Notes under the pieces: model-generated
What the model was told of the DNA's origin: nothing
What the model saw: the letters and a program-made list of their open reading frames with translations, nothing else
The model's database searches: none
Position numbers and translations under genes: made by a program
Shown: positions 8,952 through 61,541 of the stretch, piece by piece
Layout: each line of letters opens with the position of its first letter
Position numbering within the stretch: the first letter of the stretch is position 1
Origin: Escherichia phage Delraymugoa
Sequence record: OR896825.1
Length of the DNA stretch: 64,000 nucleotides
Direction: 5' to 3' (one strand)

Positions 8952-9710
8952 TTACTTGCAAACGTATTGATCTACATCAATTGCGCCACCGAATGTAGGA
9001 TGACGTTTTTCAAATCTAATAGTTCCGTCGTTTGGTTCGAAAACGGAGTATTCATATAGATCTTTCTTGCCAACATTCTTATAAAACCCGCCTTTAGTCA
9101 TAACGGTTTCTTGTACGTTTGCTTTGTGTACGTTGTATTCGTCAATGTATACAAAATCAACCATCTTCCCATTTTTAATGGTTACTTTAAGATCTCCTGG
9201 TTGATTTCCATATTTGGCATACAGTGGCGCTTCTTTAATTTTTGTGGAAATTCCATCTTTCATACTCCACTCATAACGAACGGTGCATTGATAGGTAAAA
9301 GTTTCGACCTTCGGTTCTTCGACCACTTTTGCTTCCTGTTTCGGTTGTTCTTCTTCAACCTTCGCAGAAGTCTCTGAATCGCTTTCTGACGCGGTTTCTT
9401 CTTTAGGTAATACATTCATCAAGTTTTGGATTTGAGCGTTATATACAGCCTCCAGTGGCTGAATCTGCCCGATATTGATCATTGTATCACGAACAGTTTT
9501 ATTCCAGTTTCGTTGCTCTTGTTTCAGAGACGGATCAATCTTAACAGCCTTAACATACACCTCATGAAGTTTAGAGTCCAGTGCGGAGATAGACTCATTA
9601 GCACAAATAAACTTCTCTGATTTGGTAGTAGCTTTAGCGCAATCAAAGGACGCAGCGTTAGCACCGAAAGCAGTAGCAGAAAGAACGATAGCAGCGATAA
9701 TGTTTTTCAT
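8952..9710 (-). CDS. secreted protein with DUF1311/LprI-like (lysozyme-inhibitor-type) N-terminal domain (252 aa)
   Basis: Signal peptide MKNIIAAIVLSATAFGANA; then FDCAKA..E.FIC....L..LD..L..VY....QRNWNK..RD pattern; GAGGAA Shine-Dalgarno; own early promoter. Confidence 0.6.
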   Translation of the reverse strand: MKNIIAAIVLSATAFGANAASFDCAKATTKSEKFICANESISALDSKLHEVYVKAVKIDPSLKQEQRNWNKTVRDTMINIGQIQPLEAVYNAQIQNLMNVLPKEETASESDSETSAKVEEEQPKQEAKVVEEPKVETFTYQCTVRYEWSMKDGISTKIKEAPLYAKYGNQPGDLKVTIKNGKMVDFVYIDEYNVHKANVQETVMTKGGFYKNVGKKDLYEYSVFEPNDGTIRFEKRHPTFGGAIDVDQYVCK

Positions 9711-20704: not shown

Positions 20705-20732
20705 ATCATATTAAAAATTGAGTGATTGTCAA
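20705..20732 (-). promoter_or_regulatory. candidate early promoter upstream of gp39
   Basis: TTGACA-N16-TATGAT on minus strand. Confidence 0.35.
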
Positions 20733-23578: not shown

Positions 23579-23892
23579 TATCCTAAAATCCTCACCTTGC
23601 GAACACAGATAGTATTGAGTTCTCGCCGTACCCGTTCTTTTTCATATTCAGGAATTTTATATTCGATACCATCCCGAACAATTTCAGAAGACCGGATTAT
23701 GCCAAATTTTCGTTTAGGTACAACCTTGTATTTCGGTTCACCCGCCAATAGACTCTCACAATAATCTATCTGATCACACATTGACGCTAACGCAGCATCA
23801 TGTGTTTCGCAAGTTAGGACGCGACCCTTCGCGTCCACTGAGTATTGAAAGAATCCGTCTTTATCACGATAACATACAGCAAATACATGCAT
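23578..23892 (-). CDS. hypothetical protein (104 aa)
   Basis: ORF overlapping dda start by 1 nt. Confidence 0.45.
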   Translation of the reverse strand: MHVFAVCYRDKDGFFQYSVDAKGRVLTCETHDAALASMCDQIDYCESLLAGEPKYKVVPKRKFGIIRSSEIVRDGIEYKIPEYEKERVRRELNTICVRKVRILG

Positions 23893-24647
23893 TATAAACC
23901 TACCTTCGCTTTCATCAATTCAATCCACGACGCATCAATCGGAAGCCCGTATTTCACGCGTTCTTTTTGTGCTGGCGTTAAGTTCTCGTACTTAGAAAGA
24001 GATTCAATCAAAACGCTGGTATATTTTAGCACGATTTCGGTATTGTTTGCAATAGCCTTAAGTTTTTCTTCTTTCTTGTTGATTTCGCTAAGTGCTTGCT
24101 TGAGATCTGCAATTTTCTGATAACGTTCTTCCATACGGAAGAGAGTATTTTTAATCGCTCGCTCGGCTGCCTCTGCTTTCTCCGGTTCGTTGTGCTTTTT
24201 ATGGCGCTCGATTGCTAATTTCTTTTCTTCGATTGCCATTTCCTGATTTTTGATGCGATTCTCGTTAAGTTCGATCCACTCGATGTACTTCGCACGTAGG
24301 GCAATTTCATCATCAGAAAGTTTACCGTTAGTTCCTAGTTCCTGGATCTCTTTAAGAGATTCGATAGTGTGATTGCCACGGAAAGAATTGTATTTCAGTT
24401 TAACCGGAATTACATTGCCATCAACATATCCCAGATTGCAATCAATGCGCTCTAAGGAGAGTCCGTCATCACCTTCACCGAAAGCCTCACCTGAATAGGC
24501 ACAATGAGTCTGACGGTAAATGTTACGAACAGTGACTAAGCTCATAGAGAAGTCTTTGTTGCGACGTGAAGCACCAGCCATGATAGAGTTCAGCCGGAAA
24601 ACAACCAGCGCCAATTCTTCGTTAGATTTAAAAGCAAACAGTTTCAT
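23892..24647 (-). CDS. hypothetical protein with coiled-coil C-terminal half (251 aa)
   Basis: AAGGAG Shine-Dalgarno, own promoter; Cys/His-containing N-domain (HCAYSGE..LSLERID..GYVDGNV) and Lys/Glu-rich helical C-terminus. Confidence 0.5.
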   Translation of the reverse strand: MKLFAFKSNEELALVVFRLNSIMAGASRRNKDFSMSLVTVRNIYRQTHCAYSGEAFGEGDDGLSLERIDCNLGYVDGNVIPVKLKYNSFRGNHTIESLKEIQELGTNGKLSDDEIALRAKYIEWIELNENRIKNQEMAIEEKKLAIERHKKHNEPEKAEAAERAIKNTLFRMEERYQKIADLKQALSEINKKEEKLKAIANNTEIVLKYTSVLIESLSKYENLTPAQKERVKYGLPIDASWIELMKAKVGL

Positions 24648-24708: not shown

Positions 24709-25212
24709 TTAAATTAAAGAAAATTTGTAAATCTCTATCAGATCGCCATTACACGCGTAAACTTCCTCGATCTCATCAAGGATCATGGTCGTCCCTGTCT
24801 TGTATATGCACTCGCGCTCATCTGCCAACATAGCATACAAAGACAGTCGAGTAGTCGGATTGTCATACTCTTTAGACACCACTCGGTCAATAGCATGTTC
24901 GTAATAATTCATGCAAGGCTTGGTAGGTTTTATTGCAATAATCTTTCCTGTTGCATAAACATCGGTCGCAAAGTCCTCTGCTGTTGATTGCAGTGGCGTA
25001 AAGCTCATAGGACGCTCTACAACGAAAGAATCGCCTACAATTAAGGTATCCAGCTTACGACCTTCTCTTTTGCTCACACCGCGATACAAGGCTTCATGAT
25101 GCACTAACCGCTCAGTCTTTTCGATCAATCCATTAAGGATCGACATATCGATATTTTCTTTAGAGTTCATCACTTCATCAATGATGTTAAGTTCTTCTGG
25201 TGTAAATTGCAT
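24709..25212 (-). CDS. putative ADP-ribosyltransferase (Mod-like)
   Basis: R-S-E-like motif set (LYRG, SFT, ERE); size and position after dda as T4 modA/modB. Confidence 0.45.
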   Translation of the reverse strand: MQFTPEELNIIDEVMNSKENIDMSILNGLIEKTERLVHHEALYRGVSKREGRKLDTLIVGDSFVVERPMSFTPLQSTAEDFATDVYATGKIIAIKPTKPCMNYYEHAIDRVVSKEYDNPTTRLSLYAMLADERECIYKTGTTMILDEIEEVYACNGDLIEIYKFSLI

Positions 25213-25245
25213 AATAAAAAAGCCTCCAATCTTTCGACGGGAGGC
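25211..25245 (-). promoter_or_regulatory. hairpin plus U-run that sequesters the Shine-Dalgarno of the Mod-like gene (terminator or translational control)
   Basis: GCCUCC-N12-GGAGGC stem; the 3' arm is the Shine-Dalgarno sequence; followed by UUUUUUAUU-AUG. Confidence 0.5.
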
Positions 25246-25274
25246 ATAATAAAACCATTATAGAGTAGTGTCAA
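25246..25274 (-). promoter_or_regulatory. sigma70-type early promoter
   Basis: TTGACA-N17-TATTAT immediately upstream of the hairpin; predicted start site falls in the hairpin loop. Confidence 0.5.
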
Positions 25275-25282
25275 CTAATTTT

Positions 25283-25801
25283 TTAGTAGCCGCGTTCTTG
25301 ACGGGCGAAGTTTTCAGCATTTTTCAGATAGTACAGAATAAAGAGTTCTTGAGCGTCAATACCCAGCGGGATCATCTTTGACAGAATGAAGTGGATCGCG
25401 TCCACAAATTCAAATTTCACTTCAAGCTGATCTTCCGGTGACAGTTCAGAGAATTTACGCGCTCGCGCTTCTCCGTGGTTCTTTTTCCACATTTTCCAGA
25501 TTGCACTTGCATCTTTACCATTGGACATTCCACCCAGCGATGTGTAAAGCTCTCGTGTTTCGTCTGCGATAGCGTCATCCATCCGTTGCATCCAATCCAG
25601 CATTTCACCGCAAGTCTCTAGCTTAGTTGGATTTGGGACCCAATCAAATTTTTCGGATAATGCAACCTGCAAACCAGTTTGCATTTCGAGCATCACCTGA
25701 AACGGATCTTTACCTTCTGCAATAGCGTGATGATATGCGGCGATAGCCGCGTTAATATCTTTTTCGTTAACCAGACCAGCACAAGAATTAAATTCTGACA
25801 T
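25283..25801 (-). CDS. 56: dCTP pyrophosphatase gp56 (MazG-like)
   Basis: Shared T4 gp56 blocks DPFQVML(E/D)MQ, KLET.G(E/D), SPEDQLE.KFE, YYLKN.ENFARQ.RGY; start moved to ATG (MSEFNSC) with GAGGTGA Shine-Dalgarno. Confidence 0.85.
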   Translation of the reverse strand: MSEFNSCAGLVNEKDINAAIAAYHHAIAEGKDPFQVMLEMQTGLQVALSEKFDWVPNPTKLETCGEMLDWMQRMDDAIADETRELYTSLGGMSNGKDASAIWKMWKKNHGEARARKFSELSPEDQLEVKFEFVDAIHFILSKMIPLGIDAQELFILYYLKNAENFARQERGY

Positions 25802-25815
25802 ATTCACCTCATTAA

Positions 25816-26844
25816 TTAAAATTTACAATATTTCATAAACCGCATTTTAGCCATCAGACCTTGTACGGTGTTCTCTTTGATGTATTCCATGATCTGGTCG
25901 CGTGTAGCGCCCTCGTCCTGAATCATGGCGTTAACGTCTTTAGAATGCCACGGGCAACGATCCCACAATACAATCTTTTCCCCTGCATTGATAAACTTTT
26001 CCAGTCGGTGCATTGTATCGGCAGACCGTGGTTCCGCATCAAGTACAAACACTCGCTGGTCTGGGAAAGGGATTTCATCTAATCCCAAAGTACCGCCAGT
26101 AATTGCACACCCGTTATCAATAAACAATGAATCGATCGGACCTTCTAAGAAATACACTGGTTTACTCGGATCGGCGCGTTCAAGACCATAGACCTTACTC
26201 GCTAACTCGTGAGTTTTAATCGTCATATATTTGGTCTTTCCGTAATCCTTTCTCAATGCTCGCCCCTGAATGGATTCTATCTTGTTCTCGCGGTTAAAGA
26301 TAGGAATCACTAAACGCGGTTCAGGTTGTGGATTCTTGAAAGTATCAGCCTTAATGTGATTTGCTACCTTTTGCCATTCTCTCGTGAAATACAGAAGATC
26401 CCATTTATCGTGAGGAATACAGCGATCACTGACATACTTTATTATAGGATGATTAGCCGGAAGAGTATCTAATCTCTCGCAGAAAGGCAATGTTTGCACT
26501 TTCTTAATCTCCGGCTTTTCTACCTTTTTCAGTGGCTTGAACGTGGTGTTCTTGTGGTCGCCTTGTTCCTTCCGTCGTTCCATAAGCCATTCCCTGAATA
26601 GGTCCGGCTTATACTGTTTGAGAAATTCACCTAACGGCTGATTGTAGTTACAGTTGAAACAGCCGCAACGCAAACTATCCTTATAGGTATAGATACGGAA
26701 TCGCGCTTGAGTATGATTTTTCTTTGAGTCACCGCAGATCGGACAACTACAGACCAGCGTAAATGAGCTAGTATGCAACCGTTTAAAATTTCGTTCGCCG
26801 TATATGGCTTTTTCCGCTATTTCATAATCTGCGTAGTAAATCAT
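25816..26844 (-). CDS. 61: DNA primase gp61
   Basis: Zinc finger CPICGDSK, PRLVIPIFN, LEGPIDSLFIDNGCAITGG, GLMAKMRFMKYCKF blocks shared with T4 gp61; 342 aa. Confidence 0.9.
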   Translation of the reverse strand: MIYYADYEIAEKAIYGERNFKRLHTSSFTLVCSCPICGDSKKNHTQARFRIYTYKDSLRCGCFNCNYNQPLGEFLKQYKPDLFREWLMERRKEQGDHKNTTFKPLKKVEKPEIKKVQTLPFCERLDTLPANHPIIKYVSDRCIPHDKWDLLYFTREWQKVANHIKADTFKNPQPEPRLVIPIFNRENKIESIQGRALRKDYGKTKYMTIKTHELASKVYGLERADPSKPVYFLEGPIDSLFIDNGCAITGGTLGLDEIPFPDQRVFVLDAEPRSADTMHRLEKFINAGEKIVLWDRCPWHSKDVNAMIQDEGATRDQIMEYIKENTVQGLMAKMRFMKYCKF

Positions 26845-31585: not shown

Positions 31586-34264
31586 TTAAATGTCAAACAG
31601 GTCAGTCAGAGAAGCAACTTTCTCATATTGCAGCTTTGCAGCCGTGGTAATGTTCTCCAGTGGTTTGACGAAAGTCTTATTAAACAACAAAGGCCAGTCT
31701 AACCACTTTAACACCTCTGATTCAATTTCTGGAGGAATACGAGTACCGGACAACCAACCAAAACAGATTTCTCCAAACGGATTTCGATCTTTCAGCGGTA
31801 CAATCATAACCTTCTCGCCCTCACGAATTGGATCTAGTCCGAATTTTCGAGCATTACGATTATAACACAATACACTCTTAACCGCATACGGACAACCCTT
31901 AATCGGATACCCGTTTGAATCGCTGTATTTCTGTAGGTTGTTTGCAGATGATACCGCAGCAACCTCAAGATAATCAAGTTTTCTAAATTCTTGCTCAAAA
32001 ATACCGTAGTATTCCTGCAATGACTCTTCACCTTCCTGCAACATACGGCGAATACATTCTTTCAGTGATTTCTGACATGCTTTAGGGGTGGAGCTACGTT
32101 GCGTTTCCAAGCCCATGATTTTTAGCTTAGGTTCAGCAAAGCGCGTTCCTTCCATATCCCAAACATTAAGAGCATAACGCTTTTTGCCAGTCCAGAATCC
32201 ACCGATACCCGCAGATTTCAACGGAGGACCAGCAATTGCCTCACGGTCCATAAACATCAAGTGCTCATAGTTGTTCATGTACTCGCATAACTCGCGATAT
32301 CCCTTGTCGATAATAGGTTCCATTCGATGTTTACCGAAATTATCAAGGAAGTCAACAAGTTTTTCGGTATCGTCGAAACGGTCTTCCCCGCCAACCTTAT
32401 CAACAACATTGTTAACCAGCACATAAACGGAGTCAGTATCACAATAACGAACATATGCAAAATCGGTTGTTCCGCAAAGCTCGTTTAAGTATTCGTTAAT
32501 CTTACGCTCAATCCACTGAATTGCAAGCTGACCAAACAAGGTGATCGCACTAGCGTTACGGAGATCATAAAAACGGAATTTAGGATTCCCCAACGCACCA
32601 TAAAGGGAGTTGATCAAAACTTTTCGAGAAAGCTGGTTTGTATTGCACAAGATCGACTCGTCTTTACATTCTTCCAGCAATTTCTCTAAGGCATCTTTAC
32701 TTAATTCAGAAAGCATCGATTTAAACGCTTCATCAAAGTCGTGACGTACTTCAACGCTATAGCTAATGGTTCCCCCATAAACATGATTTTCATCGTGTAG
32801 AATCGCTTTACAGAGTTCAGCATTGCGATCACATGCCAACATCATGTTTTTGTACTGCTTACGCTGATCGAATACCTTTTTAATCTCAATCGGTACGATA
32901 CCGTGAATATCTTTTCTATACATCCATCCGTTAGGAGAGCAAGAATACTCATCACTCGGACGTGGTGCAGTTTTATTGATATACTCGTGCATCGGTGCAG
33001 CATCAAAAGATCCGGCGATTGTTTCCGGCGAAATGTTAACCTGTCGAATAATAGATGGGTACAGACTTGTTAAGTCAAAGCTCATCATCCAACGGTAAGC
33101 ATTCGGCACAGGTTCTTTTACGAATGCGCCTGGATACGTCTGCTTAGGCTGTATCTTATTTTCCGGTACTACTTTACCCTCAGCTTTCAGAGATCCGAAG
33201 ATAATAGCATCCCATACTTTCATCGGGTTATAAACATGGTTAAATTTAATCTTTGCATAGAAACATAGACTATACACCAGATCGATAAATCCACGCTTTT
33301 TATCAATCGCCAGCACACGATCAACGTCGCCGATGTTATAATCGATGTAAAGTTGATGGTTGTCATCACGCAATTTCTTTAACGGACCATCATAATCAAC
33401 CTTACCGATTCCTGTCTCATATTCAGCAACATAATCTAACGCATATGTTGGTTGAGTCGTAAAGCTAAATTTCTTGTATAGGTCAATATAATCAAGGCTT
33501 TCGATCCCCATGATCGTAAATGCTTCACGCTCGTTGCCAAAATCATCCTGTGAGATTCGGGATTTAATCTTACCGCACGGGCTTAGACGGTTAGCGGTTC
33601 TACTTCCGAACTTATTACTGATACGTTTAATGATATATGGAATATCGAATGTTTCTGTGTTCCAGCCAGTGAAACCAACGGGTCGGTTTTCCTCAAAGAA
33701 TCGGATGTATTCTAACAGCAATTCATCTTCTGTGTCATAGACGTTATAAACAACGCGATCTACAATATCAGGTCGAAGAATAGACTTGCTTGCTTCCCAG
33801 ATTTCACCGTTTTTTCCTTTCAAATCAAATACAAAGAAACGATCATGTACGGAATCATAATGCGTAATTGCATCGATAGGATATTTCGCTTCTTCTGGTT
33901 TAGGAAATTCCGGTGCAGTGACCTCGATATCAACCCATGCTACACGGATTTTATTTCGGTCATATCGAATCTCGCCTTTATACGTATCAGACAGATAGGA
34001 GATGATAAAATCATCCATCCCTAGCGCCTCTTGCCCCATTTCTCCCATCTTTTTACGCCATTTGTTGGCCTCGTTCATAGAGGGGAATTTTTTAGCAATG
34101 CAAGGCTTGCCATAGATATCTTTATAATTCGTAACCATACCAGGCGCGGCATGATGAAATAAAGTTGGCGTATATTCAACGTAACGCTCTTGTTCTTGTC
34201 CAGCATCATCAATATAACGCTCGTAGATCTTATCACCCACTCGCTCACATGACAGAAAATACAT
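31586..34264 (-). CDS. 43: DNA polymerase gp43 (family B)
   Basis: Exo and Pol motifs shared with T4 gp43 (YPSIIRQVNISPETI, NSLYGALGN, YCDTDS); start moved to ATG (MYFLSCERVG) with AAGGAG Shine-Dalgarno. Confidence 0.95.
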   Translation of the reverse strand: MYFLSCERVGDKIYERYIDDAGQEQERYVEYTPTLFHHAAPGMVTNYKDIYGKPCIAKKFPSMNEANKWRKKMGEMGQEALGMDDFIISYLSDTYKGEIRYDRNKIRVAWVDIEVTAPEFPKPEEAKYPIDAITHYDSVHDRFFVFDLKGKNGEIWEASKSILRPDIVDRVVYNVYDTEDELLLEYIRFFEENRPVGFTGWNTETFDIPYIIKRISNKFGSRTANRLSPCGKIKSRISQDDFGNEREAFTIMGIESLDYIDLYKKFSFTTQPTYALDYVAEYETGIGKVDYDGPLKKLRDDNHQLYIDYNIGDVDRVLAIDKKRGFIDLVYSLCFYAKIKFNHVYNPMKVWDAIIFGSLKAEGKVVPENKIQPKQTYPGAFVKEPVPNAYRWMMSFDLTSLYPSIIRQVNISPETIAGSFDAAPMHEYINKTAPRPSDEYSCSPNGWMYRKDIHGIVPIEIKKVFDQRKQYKNMMLACDRNAELCKAILHDENHVYGGTISYSVEVRHDFDEAFKSMLSELSKDALEKLLEECKDESILCNTNQLSRKVLINSLYGALGNPKFRFYDLRNASAITLFGQLAIQWIERKINEYLNELCGTTDFAYVRYCDTDSVYVLVNNVVDKVGGEDRFDDTEKLVDFLDNFGKHRMEPIIDKGYRELCEYMNNYEHLMFMDREAIAGPPLKSAGIGGFWTGKKRYALNVWDMEGTRFAEPKLKIMGLETQRSSTPKACQKSLKECIRRMLQEGEESLQEYYGIFEQEFRKLDYLEVAAVSSANNLQKYSDSNGYPIKGCPYAVKSVLCYNRNARKFGLDPIREGEKVMIVPLKDRNPFGEICFGWLSGTRIPPEIESEVLKWLDWPLLFNKTFVKPLENITTAAKLQYEKVASLTDLFDI

Positions 34265-61230: not shown

Positions 61231-61452
61231 TTAGATGACCTCTGCTTCACCATTCAGGAAGAAAGACCATGTTTTGTTAGGATAGCGAAGCGCCCATGAT
61301 TCAGCGGTTTTAACACCAGCTTCGAACAATTGACGGCTGGTTACTTTAGCCATACCATCTTCGATGGCAACGTTTTCAATAATCATCGGGTACTTAGCGC
61401 CACGCATGAAACCGAAGCCAGCGGAAGATTTGATAATTTTAACCGTTGCCAT
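61231..61452 (-). CDS. hypothetical protein (73 aa) co-transcribed with gp38-like gene
   Basis: ATG with GGAGAATCAAAA leader downstream of promoter. Confidence 0.45.
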   Translation of the reverse strand: MATVKIIKSSAGFGFMRGAKYPMIIENVAIEDGMAKVTSRQLFEAGVKTAESWALRYPNKTWSFFLNGEAEVI

Positions 61453-61493
61453 TTTTGATTCTCCTAGAAAGTGTATCTCGTTTCGATGTGTGT

Positions 61494-61522
61494 ATTATGC
61501 AATAACACCGGATCGCTGTCAA
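61494..61522 (-). promoter_or_regulatory. sigma70-type early promoter
   Basis: TTGACA-N17-CATAAT with conserved leader. Confidence 0.55.
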
Positions 61523-61541
61523 CACTTTCTAAGAAAAATTT

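Follow-up and report, generated by a model that had tools for sequence, protein, structure and literature searches.

Control of translation by the promoter from which an RNA originates is a textbook principle for late genes of bacteriophage T4. In early and middle read-through RNA of e, soc, 49 and I-TevI the Shine-Dalgarno sequence (SD) and/or the AUG is held in a helix; RNA from late promoters that lie within the 5' strand of this helix is translatable, a 100-fold difference in the case of e (Uzan & Miller 2010, PMC3014915). Here we describe a cassette that appears to apply the same principle with an early promoter, located upstream of a modB-like gene in a 64,000-nucleotide stretch of Escherichia phage Delraymugoa (OR896825.1; this whole stretch is referred to as the window), a phage of the genus Krischvirus, which comprises RB49-like, "pseudo-T-even" members of the T4-like phages. 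The 70-nt gap between gene 56 and modB holds a predicted early promoter fused to a predicted terminator hairpin. As for e, soc, 49 and I-TevI, and also mobE of phage Aeh1, it is the RNA initiated upstream that would sequester the initiation region. In those T4 genes the promoter overlaps or adjoins the 5' strand and its RNA lacks that strand, and in the window the predicted start lies 1-2 nt past the 5' arm. However, the T4 promoters are late ones (gp55, TATAAATA) and delay expression, whereas the window promoter is of the early sigma-70 type and would limit expression to the earliest period. Moreover, the Krischvirus version is predicted to be an intrinsic terminator as well.

Predictions of both parts of the cassette in RB49 date from 2006. 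Nolan et al. (2006, PMC1524935, additional files 3 and 6) list the early promoter Pe:9496 (9446-9496), identified with a T4-type early-promoter hidden Markov model (HMM) at a score of 11.3, and the TransTerm terminator "modB<--56" at 9430-9453 with a confidence of 100. These are the same two elements as those of the window, in homologous position and overlapping by ~8 nt. They are given as coordinates in separate tables, and the parts of that paper's text on which we draw mention neither the overlap, nor an SD in the stem, nor any consequence. Among later sequence records, GEC-3S annotates exactly these TTGACA/TATTAT hexamers as a promoter and Makalu_002 carries a terminator from the base past the -10 to the ATG, with a ribosome binding site (RBS) inside it.

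The cassette is a member of a described class, the composite early promoter/stem-loop cassettes (PeSLs) of RB49 and phi1, which are present in 51-52 copies per genome (Arbiol et al. 2010, PMC2839356). In the parts of that paper used here, promoter/terminator activity is demonstrated for PeSL193/192, 206/205 and 211/210 only, and the authors read the stem-loops as terminators or attenuators only. PeSLs have also been proposed as recombination sites (PMC2839356; Comeau et al. 2014, PMC4122927), and the same parts of the two papers concern termination and recombination roles, not promoter-specific translation. The window cassette shares with PeSLs the phage group, an AT-rich stretch upstream of the -35 (AAAAAATTAG, 25284-25275), a sigma-70-type early promoter with near-consensus hexamers and an adjacent stable stem-loop, and its stem, directly past the -10, corresponds to the fifth of five stem-position subclasses (PMC2839356). 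It differs in preceding a gene of known function, not an ORFan, and in lacking the common leader (acacacat...aggagaatcaa-ATG), so that, judged by eye, it does not share the ~100-bp conservation. We consider it probable that this PeSL-type early-promoter/terminator cassette makes ModB synthesis depend on the promoter of origin.

Predicted sequestration of the modB Shine-Dalgarno sequence

A sequence-only reading of this DNA, made earlier by a model, had described a -10 (TATTAT) followed directly by GCCUCC-N12-GGAGGC and then the ATG, and all of these elements are present on the minus strand (Table 1). The two arms stand as described, but the N12 is not a plain loop: it contains a 1x1 mismatch, a 3-bp inner helix and a GNRA tetraloop (25239-25228). 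The outer stem comprises 6 bp, five of them G-C, to which the inner helix and its GAAA loop are added. On its own the hairpin folds at -15.0 kcal/mol, compared with -5.3 ± 2.2 kcal/mol for dinucleotide shuffles (z = -4.5; 0/200 shuffles as stable). The whole 106-nt context is not unusually structured (z = -1.07), an indication that the structural signal is that of the hairpin alone. A U6AUU tract follows the GC-rich stem-loop immediately on the transcribed strand, the anatomy of an intrinsic terminator, although the activity is a prediction; our simple terminator scan allows loops of at most 8 nt and for that reason did not pick up the hairpin.

Accessibility of the SD was compared across the window by folding the -90 to +30 context of 102 gene starts, which were called crudely. 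In read-through RNA the modB SD (GGAGG, 25227-25223), which the earlier reading had correctly placed in the 3' arm, is buried more deeply than any other (P(unpaired) = 0.0004, rank 1/102), and the AUG itself is unpaired (0.72). The 5' arm is missing from RNA that begins 7-8 nt past the -10; such RNA has almost no structure (-1.1 kcal/mol) and an SD P(unpaired) of 0.74-0.86. These folds show, computationally, an SD locked in read-through RNA, and the claims that such RNA would be terminated or translationally silent while own-promoter RNA would be translatable both hold up in silico, the former also through the earlier terminator predictions for RB49 and Makalu_002.

The metric is validated by T4, where gene 49, a documented case, is among the most buried SDs of the 76 annotated starts in the first 50 kb of the genome, along with I-TevII, gene 55 and, in fourth place, modB. 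The most buried starts in this part of T4 (NC_000866) are those of I-TevII (45612), gene 55 (40157), gene 49 (46855), modB (13130) and motB.2 (8161), and SD burial at gene 55 and motB.2 may merit a look.

In the model that we favour, a polymerase arriving from the replication genes 41-61-56 would transcribe the hairpin and U6 and mostly terminate there, and in any RNA that reads through, GGAGG would be locked in the -15 kcal/mol stem and ribosomes kept off modB. A sigma-70 polymerase at TTGACA-17-TATTAT would start at C25239 or G25238. RNA started there, past the 5' arm, cannot form the hairpin, so it would be neither terminated nor closed and would be translated. The 5' arm would have a double role, as promoter discriminator in DNA and as anti-SD in upstream-initiated RNA, and ModB would be made only while its own early promoter fires. 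We infer in this model the promoter activity, the start site, the efficiency of termination and the translational effect.

Promoter shut-off alone does not account for the timing of ModB synthesis, since upstream transcription continues through the region. If the model is correct, a rule by which only own-promoter RNA is translated would explain how ModB synthesis is confined in time, and the synthesis of a toxic enzyme that modifies the translation apparatus would be confined to the first minutes of infection. The textbook T4 mechanism would then extend from late to early promoters, and a promoter discriminator could be selected for its RNA role in another promoter's transcript. As a compact 65-nt insulator combining terminator, promoter and conditional RBS, the cassette would also be reusable in synthetic constructs.

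Comparison with other genera of T4-like phages

Eight Krischvirus genomes have the same 70-nt gap except for homopolymer length and one spacer substitution, and in a DNA-level search for distant copies of the cassette only the coding part of gene 56 aligns beyond the genus. We therefore compared the leaders of Mod genes from nine other genera, chosen one by one: T4 (Tequatrovirus), JS98 (Dhakavirus), S16 (Gelderlandvirus), MY02 (Marfavirus), myPSH1140 (Karamvirus), phiE142 (Carettavirus), PEi26 (Kanagawavirus), X20 (Winklervirus) and mar005P1 (Mosigvirus). In all nine, as in the window, an early promoter stands immediately before the first Mod gene (modB); in the nine it is of the T4 type, GTTTACA-16/17-TATGAT or similar. 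Its -10 and discriminator, as 5' arm, pair with the SD and mostly also the AUG, as 3' arm, in a stem of 9-16 bp, TATGAT of the -10 being matched with AUCAUG. The leaders also share with the window a pyrimidine-rich anti-SD in the discriminator (for the T4 modB leader, discriminator or 5' arm, AGCUUCUG), an SD of the form GGAG(G) as 3' arm and a predicted start at the end of the 5' arm, where every genus has a purine 7-8 nt past the -10.

The stem sequences differ by genus (AGCUUC/GGAGGCU, GACCUC/GGAGGUC, AUCUCU/AGGAGAU, AGUCUUCUC/GGAGACU) in a manner that suggests compensation. In an SD-anchored pair table, stem positions 3' of the SD each show 3-4 canonical pair types. Both phiE142 and mar005P1 have a one-base insertion that is matched on both stem arms, and native arm pairs average -16.6 kcal/mol, compared with -9.8 kcal/mol for cross-genus chimeras in which the 5' half of one is joined to the 3' half of another; the pair table and the arm-swap control rest on per-sequence minimum free energy folds and so lean towards structure. 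RNAalifold on a MAFFT alignment of the modB leaders did not recover the stem (7 pairs, energy ~0), which we attribute to loop and spacer indels that put the stems out of register. The cross-genus stem variants amount to ready-made compensatory mutants.

The predicted accessibility follows the same pattern as in the window. In RNA from the predicted start the SD is open at 0.73-0.97 in most genera and 0.2-0.35 in phiE142, and in the full leader hairpin it is open at no more than 0.007, and at 0.12 in phiE142. As a control, second, modA-type genes (JS98 modA, mar005P1 modA, SSE1, phiE142 and phage 212) have promoter-like hexamers but no such stem. Recurrence of the design with compensating stems before modB, together with its absence at modA-type genes, argues for the promoter-specific control that the sequence-only reading had proposed; that interpretation is supported in silico, most strongly by these comparisons, although the reading had missed that the cassette belongs to the known PeSL class.

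The two versions are not identical. In the other genera the stem is longer, starts inside the -10 and closes the AUG, and there is no U-tract, so these stems are not terminators. In the window the stem (6 + 3 bp) begins past the -10 and U6AUU lies between it and the unpaired AUG. Because the -10 hexamer is itself part of the 5' arm in the other genera, it is close to forced that their own-promoter RNA lacks that arm. The comparison points to sequestration of the initiation region in foreign transcripts as the conserved function at modB, with termination a Krischvirus addition through the U-tract. The broader reading is that in T4-like phages generally the promoter of origin decides whether modB RNA is translated, the -10/discriminator doubling as anti-SD and anti-AUG strand, with compensatory evolution over at least ten genera and fusion to a terminator in Krischvirus. 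It seems to us evenly poised between right and wrong, and the same balance applies to its corollary that the modB gate would mirror, with an early promoter, the classical gates that late promoters provide for e, soc and 49. The apparent novelty lies in the use of an early promoter and in a modB design conserved, with compensatory changes, in at least ten genera.

The annotation of phiE142 gives its first Mod gene as a fragment of 44 aa, although a complete promoter/hairpin leader is retained; here the regulatory cassette seems to outlive the gene.

Promoter register and alternative readings of the hairpin

Several points weigh against the favoured model, and two alternatives build on them. The Krischvirus gap is no more conserved than modB itself (97-99% identical), and the genus offers no test of covariation. 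The hairpin geometry differs from that of the other genera, so that we infer the homology of the design. G-rich SDs are convenient stem material, and some SD-in-stem cases are expected by compaction alone. The HMM score of Pe:9496 is a low 11.3; typical early promoters of RB49 reach 30-46 in the tables of Nolan et al. (PMC1524935). Finally, the spacer holds a perfect TATAAT (25262-25257), from which transcription might in principle begin and yield RNA with the complete hairpin.

If compaction and chance suffice, the hairpin would just end the 41-61-56 unit, the promoter would restart transcription, and SD sequestration would have no selected role. Plain juxtaposition of this kind is unlikely in our judgement. 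PeSLs are abundant, with ~25 PeSL-like cassettes on the minus strand of the window in our census of near-consensus promoters upstream of ORFs, besides the copy numbers reported for RB49 and phi1, and their stems occupy many positions; GGAGG is a handy GC-rich element in a 70-nt gap; covariation is absent within Krischvirus; and the class's authors, in the parts of their paper cited above, see only terminators or attenuators (PMC2839356). Against this, nearly all PeSL-like cassettes in the window have their stem between the hexamers or across the -10, with the SD free in most, and the 56/modB cassette is the only one whose terminator 3' arm is the SD, at the start with the most deeply buried SD of the window. 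Moreover, the nine other genera have a covarying SD/AUG-sequestering stem at modB that, lacking a U-tract, is no terminator.

The promoter assignment bears on a second alternative. TTGACA-17-TATTAT matches 11 of 12 positions in a consensus scan, a scan that alone proves little, as it found 35 sites compared with 30 expected in shuffled sequence. Its hexamers are the same as those of the GEC-3S annotation and of the T4-type early-promoter HMM pick, in agreement with the early promoter called by the sequence-only reading. Early promoters of these phages carry a T at -7 and a G at -36, are rich in A from -40 to -44 and have C residues from -3 to -1 (PMC1524935). Aligning T at -7 and G at -36 places position 0 on C25239, the A-run at about -40 to -44 and the anti-SD in the C-rich -3 to -1 region. 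The length of the A-run differs by one A among relatives.

Were transcription of modB to start upstream of 25245, for example from the spacer TATAAT, or were there no promoter here at all, the hairpin would be part of modB's own mRNA, as a 5' stabiliser, as a constitutive translational brake or as a structure needing a trans-acting opener. The spacer TATAAT is perfect and is conserved in 8/8 aligned genomes, the TTGACA/TATTAT promoter scores low, and for a toxic protein such as ModB a brake would keep levels very low. This possibility nevertheless strikes us as very unlikely. The TATAAT has neither a -35 at 16-18 nt nor a TG extension and was not reported by the promoter scan, and the A-run and C-rich region fit the register of TTGACA/TATTAT. 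RNA with the hairpin and U6 would mostly terminate, leaving a conserved modB (97-100% identical in 57 records) essentially unexpressed. In the other genera, with the -10 inside the 5' arm, own-promoter RNA cannot hold that arm.

Three further candidates were rejected. A late promoter is excluded by the lack of any TATAAATA on the minus strand between 25200 and 33000, and a bidirectional terminator by the lack of a U-tract past the stem in plus-strand RNA. A leader-peptide attenuator or riboswitch finds no ORF, no alternative pairing and no Rfam match, the Rfam search giving only sub-threshold, chance-level matches (at most 25 bits where the gathering score is 40; E = 0.2-1).

RegB and structure in modB RNA

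Terminator hairpins generally protect RNA 3' ends. The stem might accordingly stabilise the 3' end of the gene 56 message, or it might shield GGAG from RegB, with control of translation secondary; we give this little credence. This endoribonuclease cleaves early SDs at GGAG, and secondary structure prevents it from doing so. The GGAG of T4 modB is among the sites efficiently cut by RegB in vivo, yet modB RNA in vitro behaves like a structured, RegB-resistant mutant, and a stable structure was presumed (Durand et al. 2006). There is no obvious gain, however, in shielding a GGAG that is unusable for translation, and the CUUUUUU past GGAGG is unlike the A-rich RegB/S1 context GGAGAAUAAAA. RNA protection also leaves unexplained a promoter placement that always gives RNA without the 5' arm.

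The contrast between the in vivo and in vitro behaviour of T4 modB RNA is consistent with an SD exposed in the natural early transcript but hidden when a longer RNA is made synthetically, as the favoured model would have it. That passing remark (Durand et al. 2006) is the only mention of structure in T4 modB RNA that we found, and our literature search, which did not extend to the key T4 modA/modB papers, the RB49 5'-end mapping or the T4 genome review, returned no description of a promoter-embedded hairpin at modB.

Genomic setting and gene 56 alleles

Over 1.3 kb around the site, identity is 99.8% with Escherichia phage FL38 and 99.1% with RB49. All genes here are carried on the minus strand, in the order gp61, gp56, the 167-aa Mod protein, Srd, Dda.1/Y01A and Dda (Table 1), and upstream transcripts running into the cassette would come from the replication genes 41-61-56.

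Table 1. Features of the gene 56/modB region, in the direction of transcription (window coordinates)
Feature	Position	Strand	Basis or remark
Primase gp61	25816-26844	minus	ORF list
Gene 56, dCTPase/dUTPase-type NTP pyrophosphohydrolase	25283-25807	minus	PHROG 173, E = 5e-37; Pfam dUTPase_2; annotated gp56 in RB49 and Phi1
Gene 56 stop codon, TAA	25285-25283	minus	sequence
A-run, AAAAAA, then TTAG	25279-25284	minus	sequence; UP-element-like position, about -40 to -45 from predicted start
-35 hexamer, TTGACA	25269-25274	minus	sequence, consensus scan; minus_35_signal in GEC-3S; within RB49 Pe:9496
Second TATAAT, perfect, in spacer	25257-25262	minus	sequence; not reported by promoter scan
-10 hexamer, TATTAT, 17-nt spacer from -35	25246-25251	minus	sequence, consensus scan; minus_10_signal in GEC-3S
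Hairpin, GCCUCC-C-GUC-GAAA-GAU-U-GGAGGC	25222-25245	minus	folding; 24 nt
Hairpin 5' arm, GCCUCC	25245-25240	minus	promoter discriminator; anti-SD
Predicted transcription start, C25239 or G25238	25238-25239	minus	promoter geometry; 7-8 nt past -10, directly 3' of 5' arm
Hairpin 3' arm, GGAGGC	25227-25222	minus	contains SD GGAGG, 25227-25223
U6AUU tract directly past stem	25213-25221	minus	terminator U-tract; also SD-AUG spacer
modB-like gene, 167-aa Mod-family ADP-ribosyltransferase	24709-25212	minus	PHROG 832, tblastn, R-S-ExE; annotated ModB in RB49 and Phi1
modB ATG	25212-25210	minus	sequence
Srd	23892-24647	minus	gene order

Gene 56 is found as two alleles of ~72% identity within Krischvirus (SSG23, OZ035808 and MIZ6 versus the window, RB49 and Phi1; window 25300-25781), with 98-100% identity in the surrounding primase end, cassette and modB. 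Divergence sets in ~25-45 nt into the 5' end of the gene and stops ~20-70 nt before its stop codon; the block is a gene-sized mosaic replacement adjoining the cassette.

A block ending within ~20-70 nt of the cassette, with such divergence on one side and near identity of cassette and modB on the other, is what might be expected if the cassette were kept mainly for PeSL-mediated modular shuffling, in line with the recombination role proposed in the cited parts of the PeSL papers (PMC2839356, PMC4122927), and its regulatory anatomy were a by-product. We regard this as highly improbable. The swap boundary lies inside the coding end of gene 56 and not in the cassette, the modB cassette lacks the shared PeSL leader that would give homology to other copies, and the covarying modB stems of other genera would go unexplained.

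The ModB-like protein

The 167-aa protein matches PHROG 832, "RNA polymerase ADP-ribosylase" (E = 1e-20), and by tblastn shares 29-34% identity with ModB/ModA from other T4-like phages. Residues R44, S70, E132 and E134, which make up the R-S-ExE motif, are invariant in a 7-sequence alignment that includes ModA and ModB of T4 and JS98 and the Mod proteins of S16 and MY02. No Pfam model matches the protein, and a PDB sequence search returned no relative. "Mod-like ADP-ribosyltransferase", the name given by the earlier reading, is a fair label on this sequence evidence. The Krischvirus protein lacks ~30 N-terminal residues found in all aligned ModA/ModB homologues (189-207 aa) but keeps R-S-ExE. 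Targets of ModB are ribosomal protein S1, EF-Tu and trigger factor, and over-expressed ModB has been reported to be lethal to the cell. Krischvirus has one Mod gene, compared with two in T4.

Other cassettes in the window

Many early minus-strand cassettes of the window share a near-identical leader, ACACACAU[CA]..AA(G)GAGAAUCAA(A)-AUG, in which the SD is free (for example at ATG 62707, 60289, 58199, 24647 and 11312), and this shared leader fits the ~100-bp conservation reported for PeSLs. Besides that at modB, two other stems begin 1-2 nt past the -10, in the cassettes with a -35 at 31596 (ATG 31524) and at 20732 (ATG 20642). Their promoters are perfect or near-perfect and their stems are GGCGGGUGUUGGGUGACGAUACCCGCC and UUGUUGCAGCCGUC...GGCGGUUGCAG, respectively, with neither a U-tract nor an SD in the stem. 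RNA from the own promoter of either cassette would lack most of the 5' arm.

A PeSL-like cassette at 61452-61532 on the minus strand (-35 at 61522, ATG 61452) shows another geometry of the same idea. Here 11 nt just upstream of the -35 (UUAGAAAGUGU) pair with ACACUUUCUAG, which overlaps the SD, and the promoter forms the loop. Only upstream-initiated RNA would close this SD, which ranks 3/102 for burial.

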